From positions 1 through 54,883 of the forward strand of contig CAWEXP010000007.1 of the NCBI GenBank assembly GCA_963813065.1: a stretch of 54,883 nt of DNA. The letters run 5' to 3'. This stretch comes from Candidatus Kaiserbacteria bacterium. GTDB taxonomy: Bacteria > Patescibacteriota > Minisyncoccia > Phycocordibacterales > Phycocordibacteraceae. Positions 14,221 through 53,877 of the stretch are shown here, in pieces (position 1 is the first letter of the stretch; each line of letters opens with the position of its first letter). Under the pieces are notes generated by a model. The model ran no database searches and was not told the origin of the DNA. It worked only from the letters and a program-made list of their open reading frames with translations. The position numbers were made by a program, and so were the translations under genes.

Positions 14221-14766
14221 ATGGATTGGAAAGGCGACGACATAGACGAGGAGAGCATTGTGGAGCCGGAGCCCGAAGAGGGTGGCGATGCTGTCGTAGC
14301 CAAAATAAAGAAGATGAAGGATGAGCTCGCCGAGGTGAAGAAGGAGAAGCAGGACTATCTCGACGGCTGGCAGAGGAGCAAAGCGGACTATGTGAACTTA
14401 CTGAAGCGGACCGAGGGAGATGCGAAAGTGTCAGAGTTGAAAGGAAAAATAAAATCGGTTGAAACCTTGCTGCCCGCGTTTGATGCGCTCGAACGCTCCA
14501 AGGAGCATGGCGAAGTACCCGAAGGGTTCATGGCCATCGCGAAGGAACTTGAGAGCGCCTTCGCCGCGCTCGGGATCGAGGAGGTGGGGAAGGTCGGCGA
14601 AGCATTTGATCCTGCATTCCACGACGCGATGGGGCAGGACGTGGTGGAATCGGCAGAAGAAGATGAGAAAATAACTGCCGTATTAGAAAAAGGATGGAAG
14701 ATTGGCGAGCAGGTGATTCGCCCCGCAAAAGTCAGAGTCGGAATGTTAGGACATCCGATGTCCTAA
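14221..14766 (+). CDS. grpE: nucleotide exchange factor GrpE
   Basis: QRSKADYVN, FDPAFHDAM, KGW...IRPAKVRV. Confidence 0.95.
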   Translation: MDWKGDDIDEESIVEPEPEEGGDAVVAKIKKMKDELAEVKKEKQDYLDGWQRSKADYVNLLKRTEGDAKVSELKGKIKSVETLLPAFDALERSKEHGEVPEGFMAIAKELESAFAALGIEEVGKVGEAFDPAFHDAMGQDVVESAEEDEKITAVLEKGWKIGEQVIRPAKVRVGMLGHPMS

Positions 14767-21001: not shown

Positions 21002-22327
21002 ATGACCCCCATTAGAAAGCTCGAGGACTCGCGTTCAAACGGGGCGAGCCTCGCAGAAGAACTGAAGGCGCGCGGGCTGGTAGAGGTGAGCTCGAAGCCC
21101 ATTGAGGAGATACTGGGCACGCCGCGGACGGTGTACCTCGGCGTTGACCCGACCGCGGATTCTATCCAGGCGGGGAATCTCGCGGTCGTGCTCCTGATGA
21201 AGCGCCTCGCCGACGCCCGCCCGAACGACGGTTCAGTCGGGCGGGCAGGGCACAAGCTGATTTTCCTCGTCGGTGGCGGCACCGGCATGATTGGCGACCC
21301 CAAGGAGCGCGGCGAGCGCGCCATGCTTGATGCCAAGGTCGTCGCGAGCAATACGCGCGCCATCACGAAGCAGTTGAAAGGTATTCTCGGCCGCACACCT
21401 TTCAAGATGGTCGACAACGCCGACTGGCTCCTCGCGGAAAAATTGGTGCCCTTCCTGCGCGACGTGGGGAAATATTTCACCGTCAACGATTTGATAAAGC
21501 GCGAACTCATCGCCAAGCGCCTCGCGACGCCCGACGAGAGCATTTCGTACACCGAGTTCACCTACGCGCTTCTGCAAGGCTTCGATTATTTCACTCTGCA
21601 TAAAAAATATGCGTGTGATTTGCAAATTGGCGGCTCCGACCAGTGGACCAACATCCTCTCGGGCGTTGACCTGATCCACAAGCGCACGGGTGACCTCGTG
21701 TACGCGTTCGCGATGCCGCTCGTCACGGATACCGCAGGGAAAAAATTTGGCAAATCAGAGGGCAATGCCGTCTGGCTCGATCCCAAGAAAACCTCGCCGC
21801 TCGCGTTCTATCAGTTCTGGATGAACTTGCCGGATGAGGGCATCGAGAAATATTTGAAGGTCTACACCTTCCTGCCGCTGGTCGAGATTGAAGCGCTGAT
21901 GGAGCTCCACAAGCAGGCGCCGCAGAAACGCCAAGCGCAGGAGACCCTCGCGCGGCTCGTGACCGAGATTGTTCACGGCCCCGCGACGACCGCGCAGGTG
22001 ATCGCCGCAACCGATGCGCTCTATGGCGGCCGTTCGTTTTCGACCCTTTCGAAACTTGAGCTTGATGTCGTTCGTGCCGAAGCACCTTCCATGCAAATAT
22101 CGAGGTTAAACCTCGATACCGGATACTCGCTGGCAGAAGCTCTTGTCGCGGGTGGTCTCGCTACCTCCAAGAGTGACGCACGTCGCCTCATCGAAGGGAA
22201 GGGCATCACGCTCTCCGGCCTGCCGGTCGAAAATCCGGATTTGAAATTATTTGCGCACGACCTGCCCGGCGGCATCGCACTGGTGCGCAAAGGCAAGCAG
22301 GGCGTGCTCGTGCTCATCGCTCGCTAG
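21002..22327 (+). CDS. tyrS: tyrosine--tRNA ligase
   Basis: YLGVDPTADS, QIGGSDQW, KFGKS, C-terminal S4 domain. Confidence 0.97.
   Translation: MTPIRKLEDSRSNGASLAEELKARGLVEVSSKPIEEILGTPRTVYLGVDPTADSIQAGNLAVVLLMKRLADARPNDGSVGRAGHKLIFLVGGGTGMIGDPKERGERAMLDAKVVASNTRAITKQLKGILGRTPFKMVDNADWLLAEKLVPFLRDVGKYFTVNDLIKRELIAKRLATPDESISYTEFTYALLQGFDYFTLHKKYACDLQIGGSDQWTNILSGVDLIHKRTGDLVYAFAMPLVTDTAGKKFGKSEGNAVWLDPKKTSPLAFYQFWMNLPDEGIEKYLKVYTFLPLVEIEALMELHKQAPQKRQAQETLARLVTEIVHGPATTAQVIAATDALYGGRSFSTLSKLELDVVRAEAPSMQISRLNLDTGYSLAEALVAGGLATSKSDARRLIEGKGITLSGLPVENPDLKLFAHDLPGGIALVRKGKQGVLVLIAR
21215..21249 (+). repeat. family C palindromic insertion in tyrS
   Basis: GCCCGCCCGA-12 nt-TCGGGCGGGC-AGG; adds RPNDGSVGRA inside LADAGHK. 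Confidence 0.85.
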
Positions 22328-23404
22328 CGGAAAATAATTCGATAGACGAAGAAACTCTCGAAGGCGATAAGCGCCGAGGCGATAACTTGCGCCAGGATGT
22401 ACCAGAGGCCAAAGAATTGGACGAGCGCGTAGAGAATCGCCGTATTGAGTGCGAGATTGAAGATGTTTATCAAAAGGAAGAAGAATCCCTGGCGCGTGGG
22501 CGAACCGCCGGTGCCGCCAAAGGCCCAGAGTTTCTGTAGGGTGAAGTTATAGGCGACCGCGATGATGAACGCCACGATTTCCGACGCGAGGTACCAGAGG
22601 CCGAGGCCAGCGGTCAGCGCATAGAGCACGACGAGATTCACCAGCATGGCGGTGGTGCCTACGACGATGAAGCGGAATATCCGCGCGTGCGACTCGACGA
22701 AGAGCGTTACGATGCGCCAGACACAGCGGACGCCGTGCCGCCAATTTAACTTTTTCCCTTCGCTCGCGCTCCGCGCGTGGTAGTGAATCGGCACCTCGAC
22801 AATGCCGTGACGAGCCACGACGCGCGAGAGTTCGATGACGTCGAAGACGAAATCGGAACCCGGTTGCGCAAGGAGCTCGGGCACGAGCGAACGCGGGAAA
22901 ATTTTATAACAGGTCGAGAGATCGGTGAGGTGCGTCCCGAAGGCGATGTTGAAAAGCTGGTTCACCGCCCAACCACCCCAGTAATAGAAAAGGGCCGGGC
23001 ACATTGTTGTGAATCATCTGGCGAGAACCGAAGACGATGGATGCGCCTTCTTGTGGTGAGCCTGTCGAACCAGATTCGATTCGCGCCAAGAGGGCAGGCG
23101 TGTCGGCGGGATCATATTCGAGATCCGCATCTTGGATCATCAGGTAGTCGCCGCTCGCTCGGGCGAAGCCATCCTTGAGCGCCGCGCCCTTGCCGCCATT
23201 TTTTGCTCGGGTGAAAAGAATAATGCTCGGATATTGACGCGCTACTTCGCGCAGAGATTGTTTGGTTTCCTCGTTGCTCCCATCATCAACAATAATCACC
23301 TCGCGTTCCCAACCCGAAGGCAGAGGAACTTTTTGGACACGGCTCACAAGCTCGCCGATACTGTGCGGCTCGTTGTAGCAGGGGATGACAATGGAGAGCT
23401 TCAT
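22324..23404 (-). CDS. GT2 polyprenol-phosphate glycosyltransferase fused to GtrA-like domain (frameshift near 22990)
   Basis: LSIVIPCYNE, IVDDGS, NGGKGAA, QDADLEYDP; second frame has TDLSTCYK, EGKKL and a 4-TM GtrA-like tail. Confidence 0.85.
23050..23072 (-). repeat. family D hairpin element in the GT2 gene
   Basis: Minus strand TGGT-TCGAC-AG-GCTC-ACCA-CAAG; translates as GSTGSPQ. Confidence 0.65.
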
Positions 23405-24451
23405 ACTTCTGCACCGTGCAGAGCGAGCACGAGCCACGCGAGATTAGTCAGTATCACAAGGATCAGCGTACCCGCTCGCGCCCAGGGCGGCAAGTGATTG
23501 AGTCCCCAGACCGCGAGCAGGAGCGGGACCGGCGCCATCACGTAGAAGAGTCGGCTCGAGACTCAACCCCCAGCCGAAGACGATGAGCGAGGACGGGAGC
23601 GCGAACGCGAGAAAGCGCCGCTGTGCCGCCGGGAGCTCGGGCAAATGCCAGATCCCGACCGGCACCAGGAACCACGCGAGGCCGAGCAGAGCGATGGTGC
23701 TCTTGATGAGATTCTGCAGGGTGAACTGCGTGGTGAAGCCACGAACCGCGCCCACGGTGTACCAGGTGAGATAGGTGTAGTGATAGGCAAAATAGACCCA
23801 CACTTGTACGGCAAGCGTTGGCACGAGCGTGATCAGCGCAAGCAACGCAAGATTTTTTATGCGCGCTCGCCACGGCACGTTTTCAAAAAGTAAAACAAAA
23901 CCGAAAATAATCCCCGCGACGACACTGTATTCCTTCCACAAGAGACCGATTGCAATGACTGCACCGTTGAGAACCAAATGTTTGCGCAATGGCCAGCGAA
24001 TATAGAGAAGGGTGAACACGAGCGAAAGCAAGTAGAAAAATTGCGCACCAGTCTCGGTGTAGAGATCGAGACCATAGCGCAGGAGCGGATACGAGAGTGC
24101 GCCGAGAAGCGCGGCAACGAGCGCGCGCCAGTAATCCTCGAAAAAAGAATAAGCGAGCCAGTAGAGCACGAGCACGAAGGCGAAATAGAAAATCAGGACT
24201 TCGAGCAGGAACGCGGTGGGAAAGCCGAGGTAGGGTGCCGCGAGCGCGACACCGAGCGGCGCGAGCGGCTTCAAAATCCGCTGTGGATAGATTGGTGCGG
24301 GGAGGCCCGAGAAGATTTTTGCCGTCGAAATGTAATCCACATAGTCACTATTGGGCGCGGTGCCAAGCACCCCAATCTTAAAGGTGGCCGCGAGCGCGCA
24401 GACAATCAGCAGGAACACCAGCGGCCACGCATGGGCCTTCAGCGTCGTCAT
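23401..24451 (-). CDS. polytopic membrane protein, putative GT-C glycosyltransferase (frameshift near 23560)
   Basis: Many TM helices, D...Y in first loop, LLWKE. The corrected frame ends with TGA overlapping the GT2 ATG. Confidence 0.65.
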
Positions 24452-24549
24452 CGCGCCATCATACCACCCAGTCTCAGTGGCACCCGCAGGTTATTGACAA
24501 ATAGCATAAGAGCGTGTATATAAAATGAGGACAAAAGAAGGAACCTACT

Positions 24550-25014
24550 ATGTCAGAGTCATGGCGCACTGCCGCACAGCGGTATCGCAACCCGACGCCG
24601 CAACCAGCATCACACAAAGCGTCTCCGCAACCTCGTCAACCTCGGACCTCAACGTCAGTCGACGTCCAGGGCCTCATTGAACAGTTGTCACTTTTCCTTG
24701 ACGGCGACGAAGGTGCTACCGCACGCGAACTGCTCGCGGCAAGCAAGTCACATATCAACCTCGGTGAAGATAAGCCGACTATGGGCTACGGGCGAGTCTA
24801 CTTTCTCGACGGCACTGGCCTTCATTGTTCAACCGAAGCGATGGGCATGTTGATCGCATATTCCGGATCATCGAGGCCTACGATACGTGACCTGCCGATT
24901 AAAGACCTCGTCGAGGGTATCGCTGCGTGCGACTACCCCTCAGCTCCTCTCGCCAACATGCTCTCGTGGATCCGCGGGCGACTCGATGGGATTGCCCAAC
25001 ACGCACCCGCATAA
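24550..25014 (+). CDS. hypothetical protein
   Basis: 154-aa ORF with TTGACA promoter near 24494, AAGGA RBS and downstream terminator. Confidence 0.7.
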   Translation: MSESWRTAAQRYRNPTPQPASHKASPQPRQPRTSTSVDVQGLIEQLSLFLDGDEGATARELLAASKSHINLGEDKPTMGYGRVYFLDGTGLHCSTEAMGMLIAYSGSSRPTIRDLPIKDLVEGIAACDYPSAPLANMLSWIRGRLDGIAQHAPA

Positions 25015-25029
25015 TCTTTCTTCACCCTC

Positions 25030-25054
25030 GGGGCAGCACACGCTGCCCCTTTTT
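25030..25054 (+). terminator. intrinsic terminator
   Basis: GGGGCAGC-acac-GCTGCCCC-T5. Confidence 0.8.
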
Positions 25055-25111
25055 CATAAAAAGTATCTGTGCATCGTGGGGGACGAGACTAGAACGGTTT
25101 TGAGTGCATAG

Positions 25112-25143
25112 AAAAAAGCCGTCGGGTTGTACCGGCGGCTTTT
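25112..25143 (-). terminator. intrinsic terminator (bidirectional type)
   Basis: A6-GCCGTCGG-6 nt-CCGGCGGC-T run. Confidence 0.7.
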
Positions 25144-25160
25144 CGAAGCACGTAGCGGGC

Positions 25161-25460
25161 TTACGATCTCTTGCGGCTGGCCGACGATGAACCACCAAGA
25201 GTGATAATTGTCCCGAGCCAATAACCGAAGTTGTACCAGCCACCGTTGTTGTGAACCTCGTAGATCGAAATGTTGCTGTCGAACAACGAGAAAATGAAAG
25301 TGAATGGCATGACGAACCCTTGCCAGAGGCCCATCCAGAATCCTGCCGTACTTCCGTGAACATCTGGCACATGCGCCATCGGATTAGGACCTGCGCACGC
25401 GGTCAATATCAGCGCCGCGCCAATAATGCAAGCGACACTTAGAACGGTGCGAATTTTCAT
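25161..25460 (-). CDS. putative lipoprotein / small membrane protein
   Basis: Lipobox LTAC, GFWMGLWQG...IYEVHNNGGWYNFG; GGAG RBS. Confidence 0.75.
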   Translation of the reverse strand: MKIRTVLSVACIIGAALILTACAGPNPMAHVPDVHGSTAGFWMGLWQGFVMPFTFIFSLFDSNISIYEVHNNGGWYNFGYWLGTIITLGGSSSASRKRS

Positions 25461-25542
25461 CGCTATCTCCATTGAAGGGACACACGGGCGGGACTGCTAC
25501 CCAAAGACCATTGTGCACATGAAAATATTTCTGTCAATTCTG

Positions 25543-25626
25543 TGCGCCGGGAAGGATTCGAACCTTCGTAGGACTATGTCCGACAGGTTTACAGCCTGTT
25601 GCAATTGACCACTCTGCCACCGACGC
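25543..25626 (-). tRNA. tRNA-Tyr (GUA), CCA not encoded
   Basis: GCGTCGG/CCGGCGC acceptor stem with A73, anticodon loop CTGTAAA, long variable arm GGAC-ATA-GTCC, GGTTCGAATCC T arm. Confidence 0.96.
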
Positions 25627-25627
25627 A

Positions 25628-25870
25628 TTACGCACGAAGTAACTTCTTAAAAGCTTCTCCGCCCTTGTAACTTTTTATTTGTTTTTCGCGAGCATACGCC
25701 ATTGACTGCTCGGCGAGTACTTCTTTATATACCACAGACCAAGGTTTATGCCACTTCGTTGCCGCGCTGTAACCCGCATTATGTTCACTCAAACGACGAC
25801 TGAGATTGGAGGTACAGCCGATATAAAAACGATTCGTTTTTTGACTCTGGAGAATGTAAACCGTCCACAT
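25628..25870 (-). CDS. small GIY-YIG nuclease family protein
   Basis: VYILQS...FYIGCT..L.RRL.EHN...RE.QIK. Confidence 0.92.
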   Translation of the reverse strand: MWTVYILQSQKTNRFYIGCTSNLSRRLSEHNAGYSAATKWHKPWSVVYKEVLAEQSMAYAREKQIKSYKGGEAFKKLLRA

Positions 25871-25873
25871 ACC

Positions 25874-25934
25874 TTACAGCCTGTTGCAATTGACTTCACC
25901 CCGCCAACGGCGGGGCAAGCTCTGCCACCGACGC
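25874..25934 (-). pseudogene. duplicated 5' half of tRNA-Tyr with a 25-nt palindromic insert in the D loop
   Basis: Blocks of 15 nt and 21 nt identical to the tRNA 5' half, separated by TTCACCCCGCCAACGGCGGGGCAAG (plus strand, 25895-25919). Confidence 0.9.
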
Positions 25935-25982
25935 GATGGGGAAGAGTATACCAGTTTCTCCCATTTCTGCTATAGTTTTCCC

Positions 25983-26936
25983 ATGGCGAAGCCCATCATG
26001 CTCTCGGGGATTAAGCCCTCCGGCACGATCCATATCGGCAACTATTTCGGCGCGATGCGCCAGTTGGTCGAGCTCAGCAAGAGCGGGAAGTACCAGCCCT
26101 ATATTTTCGTCGCGGATTATCACGCGCTCAACACCACCCAAGACGCCGACGCGATGCGCGCTCAGACCCGCGAGCTCGTGATGGCCTATCTCGCCGTCGG
26201 CCTCGACCCGAAAGAGGTCGTCCTCTTCAAGCAGTCAGAGGTATCGGCGCACACCGAACTCGCGTGGATATTCGACGCCATCACCACGATGCCGTATCTC
26301 ATGCGCGCACACGCCTACAAGGATGCCGAAGCGAAGAATAAAGAAATCACCGTCGGCACCTTCAACTATCCGATGCTGATGGCGGCCGACATTTTACTCT
26401 ACGACACCGCACTCGTGCCCGTCGGCGCGGACCAGAAGCAACACGTCGAGTATGCGCGCGACACCGCGGAGAAGTTTAACCGCATTTTCAAACAAGAAGT
26501 GTTCAGCTTGCCCGAGCCGTACATCCTGCCCGATGTCGCCGTCGTCCCCGGCACCGACGGACAGAAGATGAGCAAGAGTTACGGCAACATCATCCCGCTC
26601 TTCGCTAGTCACGATGAGCTCGCCAAGTGCGTGATGAGCATTGTGACTGATTCGAGCGGCGGCCGACCGGAAAATGTCTATCAAATCCACAAGCTCGTTC
26701 GCGGTGCAGAAGAGCTCGACTCGATATATGAGGAACACAAAGGCAGTTACAAAATTTTGAAAGAATTACTGATTGCGGACCTCGACCGCTACTTCGGCCC
26801 GATGCGTGCCAAGTATGAGGAATTGAAAAATAATCCCGACATCGTCGAGCAGGTTCTGCTGGAGGGGAAGCACGCGGCCCGTGCCGCGAGCGAAGCAAAG
26901 ATGGAGCAGGTGCGCAAAGCTATCGGGGTCGCATAA
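25983..26936 (+). CDS. trpS: tryptophan--tRNA ligase
   Basis: SGIKPSG..HIGN, YPMLMAADILLY, VPVGADQKQH, KMSKS. Confidence 0.97.
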   Translation: MAKPIMLSGIKPSGTIHIGNYFGAMRQLVELSKSGKYQPYIFVADYHALNTTQDADAMRAQTRELVMAYLAVGLDPKEVVLFKQSEVSAHTELAWIFDAITTMPYLMRAHAYKDAEAKNKEITVGTFNYPMLMAADILLYDTALVPVGADQKQHVEYARDTAEKFNRIFKQEVFSLPEPYILPDVAVVPGTDGQKMSKSYGNIIPLFASHDELAKCVMSIVTDSSGGRPENVYQIHKLVRGAEELDSIYEEHKGSYKILKELLIADLDRYFGPMRAKYEELKNNPDIVEQVLLEGKHAARAASEAKMEQVRKAIGVA

Positions 26937-26946
26937 TTTTTATACT

Positions 26947-28332
26947 ATGGAACGCACACTCATTGGGGAATTGGGGAAACACGTCGGCGAGACAGTGCGC
27001 ATCAGCGGCTGGGTGGATGTGCGGCGCGACCAGGGGAAGATGGTGTTCTTCGACTTCCGCGACCGCTCGGGGATTGTGCAGGGCGTGACTCTGCCGAATT
27101 CGCCCGCGCTCGAGACCGCGAAAACGCTCCGCAAGGAATTCGTTGTGAAAGTGTCGGGCACAGTCAATAAGCGCCCGGAGAAGAATGCGCAGACAGAGAA
27201 GCAGAACGGCGATATCGAGCTCGAGATTAAGGGCATCGAAATTCTCGCCGAGGCCGAATCACTACCCTTTGACCTCTCGGTCGACGGATTCAATCTCGAC
27301 CTGACGACTCAGCTCGACCATCGCGCGCTCGTCTTGCGCCACCCGCGCTTGCGCGCCATTTTCAAAATCCAGAACGTCATCATCGACTCCTTCCGCGAGT
27401 TTATGAAGAGCCAAGGCTTCTTCGAATTCCAGGCGCCGACCATCACTCCCGCCGTCGCTGAGGGCGGTGCTGAAGTGTTCCGCGTTGATTACTTCGGCCA
27501 ACCGGCGTATCTCTCCCAGTCGCCCCAGCTCTACAAGCAGATTGTGATGACCGCCTTTGAGCGCGTGTTCTCGGTCAACAAAATTTTCCGCGCCGAGCCC
27601 TCTGCGACGACGCGCCACTTGACCGAGGTGGTCTCGCTCGATGCCGAATTCGGCTTCATCGAGTCGTGGAAGGATGTGCGCGACATATCCGAAGAGACCG
27701 TGCGCTACATTTTGAAAAAAATTGAGGAGACCTGCTCTGCCGAGCTCGCCTTCCTCGGTGCTGAGGTGCCGGTGATGATTGAGAAGACGCCGACGCTCTC
27801 CTTGGCCGAGGTGCAGGAGCGCATTTTCCAGGCGACCGGTCGCGATGTGCGTGGCGAGAAGGATACGAATCCCGAGGACGAGCGGACCATCTGCGAAATT
27901 ATTAAAAAAGAAACCGGTTCCGATTTCGTCTATGTCTATGGCTATCCGACGCGTCAGAAGCCTTTTTACGTCTACCCGAATCCCGAGGATCCCGAGTTCA
28001 ACGAAGGCATGGACCTCCTCTGCCGCGGCGTCGAATGGCTCTCAGGTGGCCGTCGCATCAACAATTACGCTCAGCTCTTGGAGCATGTCGAGAAGTGGGG
28101 CATGGACCCGAATAAAATTTCAATGTTCCTCGAGGCGTTCAAATATGGCGCGCCACCGGAAGGCGGCTTCGCCTTCGGCGCCGAGCGCATGACCATGCAG
28201 ATTCTCGGACTGAAGAACGTGCGCGAAGCCAGCATGTTCCCGCGTGATCTCAATCGTATCGACGAACTCTTGTCGCTCTCTACCGATGGCTCGACTCCAC
28301 TCACCATACATGGACCCGCTGACCAAAAGTAA
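26947..28332 (+). CDS. aspS: aspartate--tRNA(Asp/Asn) ligase, archaeal-type short form
   Basis: OB-fold N-terminus, YLSQSPQLYKQ, FRAEPS.T.RHLTE, YGAPPEGGFAFGAERM; no GAD insertion. Confidence 0.88.
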   Translation: MERTLIGELGKHVGETVRISGWVDVRRDQGKMVFFDFRDRSGIVQGVTLPNSPALETAKTLRKEFVVKVSGTVNKRPEKNAQTEKQNGDIELEIKGIEILAEAESLPFDLSVDGFNLDLTTQLDHRALVLRHPRLRAIFKIQNVIIDSFREFMKSQGFFEFQAPTITPAVAEGGAEVFRVDYFGQPAYLSQSPQLYKQIVMTAFERVFSVNKIFRAEPSATTRHLTEVVSLDAEFGFIESWKDVRDISEETVRYILKKIEETCSAELAFLGAEVPVMIEKTPTLSLAEVQERIFQATGRDVRGEKDTNPEDERTICEIIKKETGSDFVYVYGYPTRQKPFYVYPNPEDPEFNEGMDLLCRGVEWLSGGRRINNYAQLLEHVEKWGMDPNKISMFLEAFKYGAPPEGGFAFGAERMTMQILGLKNVREASMFPRDLNRIDELLSLSTDGSTPLTIHGPADQK

Positions 28333-34543: not shown

Positions 34544-36008
34544 AAAAGTGGTCACCCGTTTCGCACCGTCGCCGACCGGCTTCATGCATGTCGGAGGTGT
34601 TCGCACCGCGCTCTATTCCTGGCTCTATGCGCGTAAGAATCAGGGCATTTTTATTTTGCGCATCGAGGACACCGACAAGGCGCGCGAAGTCGAAGGCTCC
34701 ATCCCGCACATCATTGAATCCTTGCGTTGGCTCGGCATCGAATGGGATGAGGGCGTCGACAAGGGTGGCCCACGTGCGCCCTATCTTCAATCAGAACGGC
34801 TTGAATTATATAGAACATACGCGCAGAAATTACTCGACGCCGGACACGCGTATCCCGATCCCTATTCTGAAGAAGAGCTCGAGGCTCTGCGAAAGAAAGC
34901 CGAGGATGAGCATCGCGCATTTCTCTTCCGCGATCATAGGCCGAGCGCGGTGGGCCAGTGGGATGGGCAATCGCCGCTCCGCTTCCGCACGCCGGTCCTG
35001 AAGCGCTATGCCTGGCAGGACGCCGTTCGTGGCGAACTCTCCGCGGGAGAAGAGGCCCTCGACGATTTCATATTGATGAAAGGCGATGGGTATCCGACCT
35101 ACAACTTCGCACACATCGTCGACGACATCGAGATGCAGGTCACTCACGTCATGCGCGGCGAAGAATTTATTTCGTCGACCCCGAAGTTTCTTTCACTCTA
35201 CGAAGCACTCGGTGTCGAGCCGCCCATCTTTGTAACGCTCCCCGTCATCCTCGGACCAGATGGCAAAAAGAAATTGAGCAAACGCGATGGTGCGAAAGAT
35301 CTCCTCGATTATCGTGCTGATGGGTACATGCCCGAGGCGCTGATGAACTTCCTCGCGCTCCTCGGCTGGAATCCAGGTACTGAGCAGGAATTCTTCTCGC
35401 CCCAGGAACTCATCGAAACGTTTACGCTCGAACGAATCCAAAAGTCCGGCGCGCACTTCGACGAGGCGAAATTACTCTCCTTCAACCAGCATTGGATGCG
35501 CACACTCTCGGATGAGAAATTCGCGGAATGTTTGGACATCGAATGTCCAACATCTGATGTTGGACATTCGATGTCCCTAAATTCAGCAATGCTTTTTAAA
35601 GCCATTCCGCTGATCAAAGAGCGCGCACGCACCTTTGCCGAGGCCCGAACAATGCTCCTAGGCGAGCTCGCCTGCCTCTTTTCTGCCCCTACCCTCGACT
35701 CAGCCATCCTGGTCGCCAAGGAGCAAAAAGACCGCCCTGGAGCCACAAAATCGCTCCTCGAGAGCCTCCGAGAGCCCTTGGGAGCCTTGCCAGCGGGCAT
35801 CTCTGCCGATGCGGTTAAACAGGCCCTCATGCCCCTCGCCGACGCCGAGGAGGCGCGGGGCAAGGGCGGCCGCGGTGCGCTCCTCTGGCCACTCCGCTAT
35901 GCGCTCTCGGGGCGAGAGAAATCGCCTGACCCTTTCACCCTTATTGCACTCCTTGGTAGGGAAGAGTCAGTCGCCCGCGTACAAAAAGCAATTGCTATAC
36001 TGGGTTGA
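34536..36008 (+). CDS. gltX: glutamate--tRNA ligase
   Basis: TRFAPSPTG.MHVG, LRIEDTD, KLSKR. Confidence 0.97.
   Translation: MNKKVVTRFAPSPTGFMHVGGVRTALYSWLYARKNQGIFILRIEDTDKAREVEGSIPHIIESLRWLGIEWDEGVDKGGPRAPYLQSERLELYRTYAQKLLDAGHAYPDPYSEEELEALRKKAEDEHRAFLFRDHRPSAVGQWDGQSPLRFRTPVLKRYAWQDAVRGELSAGEEALDDFILMKGDGYPTYNFAHIVDDIEMQVTHVMRGEEFISSTPKFLSLYEALGVEPPIFVTLPVILGPDGKKKLSKRDGAKDLLDYRADGYMPEALMNFLALLGWNPGTEQEFFSPQELIETFTLERIQKSGAHFDEAKLLSFNQHWMRTLSDEKFAECLDIECPTSDVGHSMSLNSAMLFKAIPLIKERARTFAEARTMLLGELACLFSAPTLDSAILVAKEQKDRPGATKSLLESLREPLGALPAGISADAVKQALMPLADAEEARGKGGRGALLWPLRYALSGREKSPDPFTLIALLGREESVARVQKAIAILG
35534..35576. repeat. 43-bp perfect palindrome (family A) in-frame in gltX
   Basis: GGACATCGAATGTCCAACATC-T-GATGTTGGACATTCGATGTCC; translates as DIECPTSDVGHSMS. 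Confidence 0.95.
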
Positions 36009-50387: not shown

Positions 50388-51025
50388 GTGACCGCATCGA
50401 AGAACTCGCGAGTGCCTTCGCCCGTCTGCCCGGTATCGGACCGCGTCAGGGTAAACGCTTCGTCTATTATCTCCTCGCGACGGGCGCAAGCGAACGTTCG
50501 AAACTCGCCGAACTCATTTCTGCACTGGGAAAAGAAGTGCGCCAGTGCCCGGACTGTTTACGATTCTTCAACGGCTCTTCCGCACTCGTCTGCGGGTATT
50601 GCACCGACAAAACGCGCGACGATGCACAGCTCATGCTCGTCGAGAAGGATCAGGACCTCGCCGCCATTGAACGCGCAGGCACCTATCGCGGTCGCTACTT
50701 TGTGCTCGGCGGCGTTTTGACGCTCTCGGGTAAAGGTGCCATCCGTGAAAAAGAATTGGTACGGCGCGTGGAAAAAGGTTTGAAGGCTAAAACCGCCGCA
50801 GGCGGTTCGCCCGGCGCACAAAGTGCGCTTAGGGAAGTTGTGCTCGCGCTCTCGGCGACGAGCGAGGGCGAACACACCGCCGACCACGTCCGCGAACTCC
50901 TCGCCCCCTTCCGCGACCACTTGAAACTCTCCGCGCTTGGCCGCGGCCTCGCTACCGGAAGCGAGCTCGAATACTCCGACGCCGAGACCCTCCGCGCGGC
51001 GCTTAGCAATCGCAAAGAGGCATAA
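50384..51025 (+). CDS. recR: recombination mediator RecR
   Basis: LPGIGPR, CxxC...CxxC zinc finger, YFVLGG, Toprim EGEHTA, LEYSD. Confidence 0.95.
   Translation: MSDRIEELASAFARLPGIGPRQGKRFVYYLLATGASERSKLAELISALGKEVRQCPDCLRFFNGSSALVCGYCTDKTRDDAQLMLVEKDQDLAAIERAGTYRGRYFVLGGVLTLSGKGAIREKELVRRVEKGLKAKTAAGGSPGAQSALREVVLALSATSEGEHTADHVRELLAPFRDHLKLSALGRGLATGSELEYSDAETLRAALSNRKEA
50787..50817 (+). repeat. family B hairpin element in recR
   Basis: CTAAAACCGCC-GCA-GGCGGTTCGCCCGGCGC; translates as KTAAGGSPGA. Confidence 0.8.
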
Positions 51026-52843: not shown

Positions 52844-53194
52844 TTAGTTTATCGAATCGATTCTAATTTTGAGGAAAGGTTGGCGGTGGCCACGGCGCTT
52901 GTAGTAGCGGCTCTTGGCCTTGTATTTGACGACGTCAATTTTCGGCGCCTTGCCCTCGAGGAGGACGGTGCCCTTCACCTCCGCGCCCGCGATCGTGGGG
53001 GCGCCGATAGTCGTGTCGGAACCGTTGTCTACGAGCAGGACTTCGTTAAAGACAACAGTGTCGCCAGGCCTAAACGCCGCAACGGCGTCGGCCGAACCGC
53101 CTTTGGCGGTTTTAGGCAATTTCTCAATGAAAATAGTGTCGCCCTTGCTGACGACATACTGCTTCCCGCCGGTCTTGATAACCGCAATTTCCAT
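52844..53194 (-). CDS. rplU: 50S ribosomal protein L21
   Basis: AVIKTGGKQY, GHRQP; true start at 53194. Confidence 0.96.
   Translation of the reverse strand: MEIAVIKTGGKQYVVSKGDTIFIEKLPKTAKGGSADAVAAFRPGDTVVFNEVLLVDNGSDTTIGAPTIAGAEVKGTVLLEGKAPKIDVVKYKAKSRYYKRRGHRQPFLKIRIDSIN
53085..53115 (-). repeat. family B hairpin element in rplU
   Basis: Minus strand CTAAAACCGCC-AAA-GGCGGTTCGGCCGACGC; translates as KTAKGGSADA. Confidence 0.8.
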
Positions 53195-53858: not shown

Positions 53859-53877
53859 TAGGACATCGAATGTCCTA
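53859..53877. repeat. solo family A unit
   Basis: TA-GGACATCGAATGTCC-TA; the 15-mer is identical to the first unit in gltX. Confidence 0.85.

Follow-up and report, generated by a model that had tools for sequence, protein, structure and literature searches.

A minimal GIY-YIG nuclease gene between a hairpin-bearing tRNA stump and an intact tRNA: a putative homing-type selfish cassette in the tRNA genes of diverse bacteria

Examination of a 54,883-nucleotide stretch of DNA from a Candidatus Kaiserbacteria bacterium (contig CAWEXP010000007.1 of assembly GCA_963813065.1; the whole stretch is hereafter called the window) reveals that its transfer RNA (tRNA)-Tyr gene is preceded on the same strand by a copy of its own 5' part, here termed the stump, which is broken by a GC-rich hairpin, and that an open reading frame (ORF) for an 80-amino-acid GIY-YIG nuclease lies between the stump and the complete tRNA. 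Comparison of homologous loci shows a large family with the same three parts, associated with many tRNA types and present in many phyla. We propose that these parts constitute a selfish cassette of the homing type, nested in tRNA genes and encoding a minimal nuclease of the SLX1/YhbQ kind, a reading to which we assign a probability of about 0.6; both the movement of the cassette and the role of its hairpin are inferred.

The window corresponds to contig C7 of a genome assembly (G000) of 814,325 bp in 10 contigs, which is estimated to be 92% complete and in which ARAGORN, run on the whole assembly, finds 45 tRNA genes with a single complete tRNA-Tyr. Read along the minus strand, the locus comprises the native flank, two stump blocks parted by an insert, a GGT spacer, the GIY-YIG ORF, a single T and the complete tRNA-Tyr, as follows (t1, t2 and so on denote positions of the tRNA):

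25935..25979, minus strand: native upstream flank of tRNA-Tyr, now joined to the stump; shared with the divergent trpS gene and containing a TATACT box resembling a -10 element at 25950-25945
25920..25934, minus strand: stump block A, tRNA-Tyr positions 1-15 (GCGTCGGTGGCAGAG), 15/15 identical to the full tRNA
25895..25919, minus strand: 25-nt insert (CTTGCCCCGCCGTTGGCGGGGTGAA) replacing TG (t16-17), composed of CTTG, a 7-bp GC hairpin and TGAA
25874..25894, minus strand: stump block B, tRNA-Tyr positions 18-38, 21/21 identical to the full gene
25871..25873, minus strand: 3-nt spacer GGT between stump and ATG, from the sequence
25628..25870, minus strand: ORF of the 80-amino-acid stand-alone GIY-YIG nuclease, ATG to TAA, catalytic domain only (Pfam PF01541)
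25627..25627, minus strand: 1-nt spacer T between TAA and tRNA position 1, from the sequence
25542..25626, minus strand: complete tRNA-Tyr(GTA), the only tRNA-Tyr in the assembly (ARAGORN; Rfam tRNA, 60.2 bits)

This arrangement had been described in an initial annotation of the DNA, and proves correct to the base. The exact 15- and 21-nt copies of the tRNA 5' half directly upstream of the gene are far beyond chance. Block B ends one base 3' of the canonical 37/38 anticodon-loop junction, and the insert reads CTTG-CCCCGCC-GTT-GGCGGGG-TGAA, with its hairpin core at 25899-25915; the hairpin palindrome CCCCGCCNNNGGCGGGG occurs once in the window against an expectation of 0.02. Both ARAGORN and Rfam call the complete tRNA alone and leave the stump uncalled. 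A scan of 25400-26100 called neither terminators nor a strict sigma-70 promoter upstream of the stump, the TATACT box having been assigned by eye without support from the promoter scan, and no Shine-Dalgarno sequence is seen at the proper spacing before the ATG of the ORF. The RNA spanning the stump and the first 15 nt of the ORF has a predicted folding energy of -28.9 kcal/mol (z = -1.33) and is, as a whole, not unusually stable. Of the public sequencing runs listed, none contained more than 0.11 of the sampled words and none was recorded as RNA; four contig runs aligned to the locus covered the tRNA and trpS parts and left the ORF and stump uncovered, and an exact 22-nt flank pattern had no match in metagenome contigs of the same population. 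As this architecture recurs in well over 100 independent contigs, an assembly artefact is very unlikely.

The protein matches the Pfam GIY-YIG profile (PF01541) with an E-value of 6.6e-16 and 58.8 bits, against a cut-off of 22.6, its residues 1-67 aligning to profile positions 1-70 of 78. Six residues (Y5, Y16, G18, R26, H30 and E62) are invariant across 13 aligned homologs, and apart from G18 we take these to be the catalytic tyrosines, arginine and histidine and the metal-binding glutamate known from the I-TevI and UvrC literature; the pattern is compatible with an active GIY-YIG site. All 80 residues are taken up by the catalytic domain, with no separate DNA-binding module. Sequence searches of the PDB returned seven matches at E<=1, all of them weak (E 0.0099-0.2) and all either to SLX1 nuclease domains or to EF2693 and BH0048, which are UPF0213 proteins. 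NCBIfam gave a weak, sub-threshold match to a group I intron endonuclease family, PADLOC only weak matches to PDC-S14 (E 7e-4) and the PHROGs phage library no match; a phage collection yielded 12 weak matches of at most 42% identity, and at the one phage locus checked (H9) the gene does not adjoin a tRNA. Purifying selection on the nuclease protein is shown by dN/dS (nonsynonymous to synonymous rate) ratios of 0.11-0.30 against relatives where computable, with synonymous and nonsynonymous differences (pS and pN) of 0.62-0.95 and 0.15-0.35 among the ORFs of the Tyr lineage. Among cluster representatives at 50% identity, 6363 relatives are found at E<=1e-3 and 384 at E<=1e-10, the best 150 of the 6363 being mostly 80-130 amino acids long. 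Many database homologs are annotated with 20-50 more N-terminal amino acids than the conserved domain, and at one homologous locus (L009:1456-1743) translation from an in-frame upstream GTG would run through stump and hairpin; gene callers probably extend such ORFs into the tRNA stump.

Two genomes of the same genus (G005 and G078) possess an intact tRNA-Tyr that is divergent from trpS, in the same orientation as in the window, and lacks the ORF. Upstream of the stump, the flank shares 33 of 45 positions with the sequence preceding the intact tRNA-Tyr of G005, including the TATACT box and the shared trpS leader, whereas the sequence 5' of the window's full tRNA, which is the end of the ORF, matches the G005 flank at only 19 of 45. 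On these matches, it is the stump that retains the native promoter side, and the ORF together with the second t1-38 is the extra material. The locus is thus shown, by comparison with its congeners, to be an insertion. The initial annotation had viewed the uninterrupted D-loop of the full tRNA as direct evidence of insertion; the empty tRNA-Tyr genes of the congeners bear this out for the locus, but the hairpin itself is not a fresh insertion, as detailed below. All DNA matches outside G000 in a sample of 80 genomes of the genus fall on the tRNA or on trpS, and the interval from stump to ORF has no DNA-level match in the other genomes of that sample. The variable arm of the window's tRNA-Tyr is the same as in G005 and G078, so that this tRNA looks resident rather than imported.

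Association with tRNA genes was surveyed in three sets of homologous loci. Set (a) holds all homologs at E<=1e-3 in 41 genomes of the same order, 36 of which have at least one: of its 80 ORFs or fragments, 18 are followed on the same strand by a tRNA whose start lies between -45 and +250 nt relative to the stop, another 4 are preceded by a tRNA that ends less than 250 nt upstream, and 58 have neither. The tRNA habit is therefore a trait of a clade and not of the whole family, and the closest relatives of the window protein fall in this tRNA-associated clade. Set (b) consists of the 80 closest loci in one-per-species genomes, collected by a profile search with a three-sequence alignment; here a same-strand tRNA lies downstream (-40 to +250 nt after the stop) in 58/80 and upstream within 250 nt in 16/80, while 6/80 have none, so that 74 of the 80 closest homologs adjoin a same-strand tRNA. 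A replicate of 80 metagenome contigs, set (c), gave 65 with a downstream and 7 with an upstream tRNA (72/80 in total) and 8 with none, four of the latter lying within 136 nt of a contig end. By comparison, a random site in G000 would satisfy the downstream criterion with a chance of about 0.8% (45 tRNAs x 295 nt / 2 x 814 kb). The associated tRNAs are of 25 anticodon types in set (b) and 11 in set (c), and the hosts, going by record titles whose bin labels may err, include many Patescibacteria lineages, Bacteroidota, Omnitrophota, Planctomycetota and metagenome-assembled genomes labelled Gammaproteobacteria. These counts, and the occurrence of the unit twice in G000, support and considerably extend the initial annotation's idea of a unit of tRNA fragment, hairpin and minimal nuclease tied to tRNA genes.

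Its suggestion that homologs be searched for flanking partial tRNAs and hairpins proved fruitful for both features. For 31 of the 58 set (b) loci the 230 nt before the ATG contain an exact t1-10 seed of the downstream tRNA, against 2 matches in 284 kb of control sequence drawn from the same loci; the seed is likewise present in 36 of the 65 set (c) loci. For stump calls, downstream-tRNA loci from genomes, without a duplicate (L074), were pooled with those of set (c) to give 130, and the criterion was a series of colinear exact blocks that begins at t1 or t2 and matches 14 nt or more; a gapped scoring scheme was set aside for its high noise floor (99th percentile of shuffles, 37.2). A colinear 5' stump was found in 90 of the 130 loci. 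It is interrupted at least once in 87/90, its first block ends at t6-17 in 65/90, and the ATG follows it within 17 nt in 68/90. The stump as a whole ends anywhere from t14 to t60, so that the end just after the anticodon, to which attention had been drawn in the window, is particular to that copy. The ORF often overlaps the live tRNA (gaps of -10 to -39), its stop being the TAG of the D-arm. In a mirror arrangement, in which live tRNA, ORF and dead copy follow one another, a hairpin takes the place of entire arms in the dead copy; at three such loci (L078, L103 and L117) CCCCGCC-N2-3-GGCGGGG stands exactly in place of the anticodon arm. In L078 and L117 the acceptor stem of the dead copy is not that of the live one, which suggests that a cassette can bring its own tRNA. 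At one locus (L010, identical to L074; 1430-1990) a hairpin-bearing stump of a tRNA-Ser is followed by the ORF and by another copy of that tRNA's 5' half. After some 70 nt of different sequence comes an intact tRNA-Ser(GGA), distinct from the first, and behind it stands the 3' half of the first one. Such nesting suggests successive invasions or replacement of a resident tRNA.

The hairpin follows the consensus (C/T)CCCGCC-N3-4-GGCGGG(G/A) and is about 40-fold enriched beside the ORF. A scan for a CCGCC..GGCGG or CCCGC..GCGGG core with a stem of at least 6 bp found 60 hairpins in 31.2 kb of 200-nt flanks against 9 in the other 180 kb of these loci, and 76 in 30.7 kb of flanks against 18 in 63.7 kb in set (c). 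Of the 60, 41 are upstream and 19 downstream, and none is followed by a T-tract. When GC-rich perfect hairpins were sought without regard to motif, 72 were in the flanks and 39 elsewhere, the 5' arm of the 72 being C-rich in 66 and G-rich in 6. The motif is present in 65 of 122 stump inserts, and in 10 of 26 Tyr-linked loci, from different lineages, the hairpin insert lies exactly between t15 and t18. Six of the Tyr-lineage inserts have the same CTTG...TGAA flanks, and the insert in the window shares all 22 of its non-loop bases with those of loci L009, L062, L063 and L069. The outer stem pair covaries from C-G to T-A in 3 of 9 sequences, and G-U pairs extend the stem; at locus L029 two adjacent hairpins are mutual reverse complements. 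Since the insert is identical where synonymous sites are saturated, it must be maintained by selection or repeated copying and is no recent accident. The hairpin is, on this comparative evidence, an old, conserved and selected part of the unit, and its description as a freshly inserted mobile palindrome has to be abandoned in view of its constant D-loop position and its identity among saturated ORFs.

The family is sporadic and crosses host groups, and decayed copies exist. The best protein match among 24 same-genus genomes searched is 47% identical, and homologs at E<=1e-15 are present in 26 of 300 other genomes drawn evenly from the phylum. The closest relative, 74% identical, also sits in a tRNA-Tyr gene, and its upstream flank resembles that of the genus. 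A quick maximum-likelihood tree was built from 83 proteins, after five of 88 candidates (L070, L083, L101, L112 and L140) had been dropped for in-frame stops and the frameshifted L003 had been excluded from the candidate set beforehand. On this tree the amino-acid label of the tRNA changes 32 times (mean of 200 shuffles 50.0, minimum 45) and the host super-group label 21 times (shuffle mean 27.8, minimum 24), both counts being upper bounds because the 80-amino-acid alignment resolves poorly. The tree thus shows nuclease clades that partly keep their tRNA type, yet often switch both tRNA type and host group.

G000 itself encodes seven paralogous GIY-YIG loci, of which four abut tRNAs, and its paralogs are at most 41% identical. 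A short-word BLAST of the 45 tRNAs against the genome recovered three notable partial tRNA copies outside tRNA genes: the Tyr stump, a Glu stump and a split tRNA on contig C2. The tRNA-Glu(CTC) stump on C6 comprises t1-12, a 29-nt GC-rich insert, t12-36, a T and the ATG of a GIY-YIG ORF; an A8 run splits this ORF between two frames, and its second part extends into the full tRNA-Glu, ending at a TAG of the D-arm; the split (G000:C6:119137-119356, minus strand) could be a true frameshift, a homopolymer assembly error or slippage. On C4, a paralog of low GC content ends at the TAG of t8-10 of a tRNA-Ala(TGC), which is followed by a scrambled fragment and then by a second tRNA-Ala with an odd D-arm, scoring 37.9 bits against 73.2 for the first. 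The C5 paralog lies 130 nt downstream of a tRNA-Phe, and three others (one on C10 and two on C2) have no tRNA nearby; no flanking target duplications were found at these last four. The split tRNA (G000:C2:36109-36359, minus strand) is a separate observation: the gene is broken in its anticodon loop by about 177 nt, and ARAGORN finds it only with introns allowed, calling Arg(GCG). Its acceptor-stem similarity and the lack of any other tRNA-Thr(GGT) in the assembly lead us to read it as tRNA-Thr(GGU), in which case the 5' exon ends in U and the insert in G; Rfam gave no group I intron match to it at E<=0.1.

In light of these observations, we read the locus as follows. A nuclease gene of about 250 nt sits inside the cell's single tRNA-Tyr gene, and upstream of it the resident promoter stays in place together with t1-38, a dead stump whose D-loop is broken by the hairpin. 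Because its start lies 3 nt after the stump, the ORF is presumably transcribed from the tRNA promoter, and the host would lose nothing, as a complete tRNA-Tyr begins 1 nt past the stop codon. The cassette would spread like a free-standing homing endonuclease gene: the nuclease would break or nick a cassette-free tRNA gene, repair would copy the cassette from the filled allele, and, tRNAs being so conserved, the stump and the full tRNA could serve as homology arms in any host. The hairpin may 'poison' the repeat: were stump and full copy to recombine on its 3' side, the ORF would be lost but a dead tRNA bearing the hairpin would be left behind, so that most ORF deletions would be lethal. Protection of the stump against the nuclease and reduced expression are further possible effects of the hairpin, and tight linkage to an essential single-copy tRNA would further guard the cassette against loss.

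Several points weigh against this proposal. The protein lacks a DNA-binding domain, unlike characterised GIY-YIG homing enzymes, so that its site-specificity would need another source, and since the filled locus keeps an intact tRNA, the enzyme should cut its own genome if its target lies wholly within the tRNA. The variable end of the stump (t14-t60) indicates no single insertion or cleavage site, and an uninterrupted 5' block of 6-17 nt, as in 65 of the 90 stumps, is short for RecA-type homology. With the closest relative 74% identical there is no sign of very recent transfer, and for the genus vertical descent with repeated loss may account for the distribution; the identity of stump and full tRNA, the latter of resident type, fits gene conversion as well as a recent event. 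Only 22 of the 80 homologous ORFs in the 41 same-order genomes abut a tRNA, the PDB matches are weak (E about 0.01), and cleavage, homing and the transcript are all predictions from the DNA. Finally, because boundaries fall at tRNA landmarks (position 1, arm junctions, loops) and the protein has SLX1-like affinities, a structure-directed mechanism stays in play.

One such mechanism, which has a small but real chance of being right, is hairpin-directed, transposon-like insertion, in effect the initial annotation's idea of a system resembling repetitive extragenic palindromes (REPs) and their REP-associated tyrosine transposases (RAYTs), confined to tRNA genes. The nuclease would recognise the GC hairpin or the single-stranded cloverleaf or cruciform of a tRNA gene and cut at position 1, the D-loop or the anticodon arm, after which the unit would be pasted in, and the 5' duplication would be a long target-site duplication from a staggered cut. 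Duplications that start at tRNA position 1 or 2 (90/130 loci), interruptions that cluster at arm junctions or loops (the 65/90 first blocks ending at t6-17) and a hairpin conserved in sequence and polarity (C-rich arm first in 66/72), as expected of a protein recognition site, all speak for it, as do the structure-specific SLX1 nucleases being the nearest solved relatives and the mutually complementary hairpins of L029. However, the hairpins are not dispersed, the motif being unique in the window and those elsewhere mostly T-tract terminators; G000 paralogs at most 41% identical imply no recent intragenomic spread; and hairpins are mostly one-sided (41 against 19) rather than at both ends as in IS200/IS605. 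We also know of no GIY-YIG transposase in prokaryotes.

A further, rather doubtful possibility is that the hairpin-bearing pseudo-tRNA is a cis-encoded specificity module guiding an SLX1-like nuclease of 80 amino acids without a DNA-binding domain of its own. Acting as folded DNA that imitates a cloverleaf or junction, or as an RNA transcribed from the tRNA promoter, the pseudo-tRNA would attach to the matching tRNA gene by pairing or stacking and bring the nuclease to it. Such a module would explain why the flanks exactly match the resident tRNA, why hairpin sequence and polarity are conserved across phyla, why boundaries fall on structural landmarks of the tRNA and why nuclease clades switch tRNA target frequently; if true, it would represent structure- or nucleic-acid-guided homing that is retargeted by swapping tRNA-derived flanks.

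Purifying selection on both protein and hairpin, the apparent use of the tRNA promoter by the ORF and the stem-extending G-U pairs, which suit structure at the RNA level, could also be expected of a module serving the host, in which nuclease and pseudo-tRNA leader regulate or protect the adjacent tRNA by processing, attenuation or local repair and are kept without spreading. We consider this improbable, given that homologs are sporadic (26/300 genomes of the phylum, and none above 47% identity among the 24 same-genus genomes), pseudogenised copies exist, this tRNA functions in G005 and G078 with no unit beside it, and the association takes in many tRNA types with a protein tree that crosses host phyla. 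Most improbable of all is a passive scar, namely a decaying tandem tRNA duplication with terminator-like hairpins in its dead copy and a GIY-YIG gene that merely lies between. In its favour, some Bacteroidota loci (L075, L080 and L116) have a full tRNA copy before as well as after the ORF, and CCCGCC/GGCGGG is the usual terminator stem in G000. Against it, what is left of the stumps matches the live tRNA at 100% identity and is broken up by inserted hairpins, not by dispersed substitutions; T-tracts are lacking from all 60 flank hairpins; the hairpin stays conserved between elements that are saturated at synonymous sites; and the association recurs at 25 and 11 anticodon types in sets (b) and (c).

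The proposed homing-type cassette has counterparts among several known systems. One of these is SegB of T4-like phages, described in one report (PMC2988022) as a free-standing, active enzyme encoded between tRNA-Arg and tRNA-Ile that targets the tRNA intergenic region; a 2026 paper connects SegB with a tRNA-Tyr locus (PMC13096335). The cassette resembles Seg homing genes in that a GIY-YIG ORF outside any intron or intein lies at conserved genes and is sporadic among relatives, the conserved site here being polymorphic for its presence, as seen from the empty G005 and G078 sites and the sporadic homologs; its ORF fills the whole interval between stump and tRNA. Seg enzymes have DNA-binding regions beyond the catalytic domain, whereas the 80-amino-acid cassette protein is a catalytic domain only. 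Seg genes also lie between genes of phages, while the cassette is inside a cellular tRNA gene, with the 5' part of that gene duplicated and a conserved hairpin, and its hosts are cells of many phyla.

Slx1, YhbQ and YazA belong to one family according to a review (PMC7017083). A link of the cassette protein to this SLX1/YhbQ/YazA (UPF0213) group of structure-specific GIY-YIG (URI) nucleases is suggested by its best, if weak, PDB sequence matches (E about 0.01) and by the single-domain size of 80-100 amino acids. SLX1 has in addition a zinc-finger domain and requires Slx4, and genes of the YhbQ type are ordinary chromosomal genes not known to lie within tRNA genes.

Fractured genes and group I introns with homing endonucleases likewise have a homing-type nuclease gene interrupting a conserved gene, and introns are known from the anticodon loops of tRNAs (PMC2677866, PMC3984707). 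The cassette differs from these in having no intron RNA, an ORF that fills the insert, and a function restored by partial duplication instead of splicing. An Rfam scan of 24500-27000 at E<=1 returned tRNA only, and a group I intron in the tRNA gene was rejected as there is no intron family match and a complete, uninterrupted tRNA lies downstream. A published account of prokaryotic tRNA gene fragments ascribes them to CRISPR spacers and to integrated elements of 9-23 kb, and the word 'endonuclease' is absent from it. Integrase-bearing islands and prophages of that size in tRNA genes contrast with a cassette insert of about 250 nt that has no integrase and duplicates the 5' part. Integrase elements duplicate the attachment-site part of a tRNA, usually its 3' end. 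The ten neighbouring ORFs, a housekeeping set, code for TyrS, GtrA, a PMT_2-like protein, two unknown products, TrpS, a class II (D/K/N) aminoacyl-tRNA synthetase, ScpA, ScpB and a DD-carboxypeptidase; neither an integrase nor a transposase was found among them or within about 5 kb, as the initial annotation had stated for integrases. An integrase-type tRNA island was accordingly rejected, given this absence and the duplication of the 5' rather than the 3' part. A full-text literature search, with subscription journals and supplements outside its coverage, returned no paper linking GIY-YIG genes with tRNA stumps or hairpins; an earlier description of the cassette may exist.

As to the surroundings of the locus, in most relatives of the genus (loci L052-L061) tRNA-Tyr is directly upstream of trpS in the same direction and follows an ORF resembling the end of tyrS. 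In the window (22324-25626) tRNA-Tyr is inverted relative to trpS, as in G005 and G078, and the approximately 3.2 kb between it and tyrS hold the genes for GtrA and the PMT_2-like protein and the two unknown ORFs.

REP/RAYT systems share with the cassette a short GC-rich hairpin beside a single small nuclease gene. RAYTs are, however, enzymes of the HUH/Y1 type, with REPs scattered in tens to hundreds of copies, whereas the cassette enzyme is a GIY-YIG nuclease and its hairpins occur only in the tRNA stump beside the gene. A system of this type was rejected for that reason, the hairpin being present once in the window and similar hairpins elsewhere being mostly terminators; CCCGCC-stem hairpins elsewhere in G000 mostly carry T-runs. 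The analogy with RAYTs and REPs drawn in the initial annotation accordingly fails for want of both an HUH transposase and dispersed copies.

The window does contain an excess of perfect hairpins (33, against 6-15 in shuffles), and a separate element of about 50 nt with two hairpins was delineated in G000, with the layout GGCTAA, A(A/C)CCGCC-N3-GGCGG(G/T)T, CGCCCGRC, hairpin 2 and YTTAGGG. It occurs in both orientations, inside long stop-free frames, at the following places:

50785-50834, plus strand: two-hairpin element in the window
53069-53117, reverse orientation: two-hairpin element in the window
C3:14679, C4:74345, C4:86234, C6:123201, C8:12741, C10:68701 and C10:154993: two-hairpin elements elsewhere in G000

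Its core pattern has 8 copies in G000, four per strand, and looks like a recent burst of a palindromic element within coding sequence. The GIY-YIG protein had been put forward as the best local candidate for the enzyme that spreads such coding palindromes, but this role is rejected, the proposed correlation of nuclease presence with palindrome copy number failing for this element: among 40 relatives, 35 have GIY-YIG homologs, yet the two-hairpin core is present as one copy each in 3 genomes and absent from 37. Two further palindromes, TAGGACA-N5-TGTCCTA (12 copies with the stem in G000) and ATCGAGG-TTAAA-CCTCGAT (10 copies), have window sites, listed jointly for the two families, that include 14747-14765, 35532-35564, 53859-53877 and 22099-22117; they may be operator-like sites or repeats.

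If the proposed selfish cassette is real, it would define a compact class of selfish elements, about 300-350 nt in all, in the tRNA genes of many bacterial phyla, which needs no promoter, DNA-binding domain or integrase, bears a conserved hairpin, and whose target is regenerated by partial duplication. It would account for many 'partial tRNA' and low-scoring pseudo-tRNA calls as well as over-extended GIY-YIG gene models, and would give a function to part of the large uncharacterised UPF0213/YhbQ-like family (6363 representatives at E<=1e-3). It would also provide a very small nuclease-plus-hairpin system with a targeting rule open to bench work, and would mean that streamlined 0.8-Mb genomes of the symbiont type tolerate several such parasites in essential single-copy genes.

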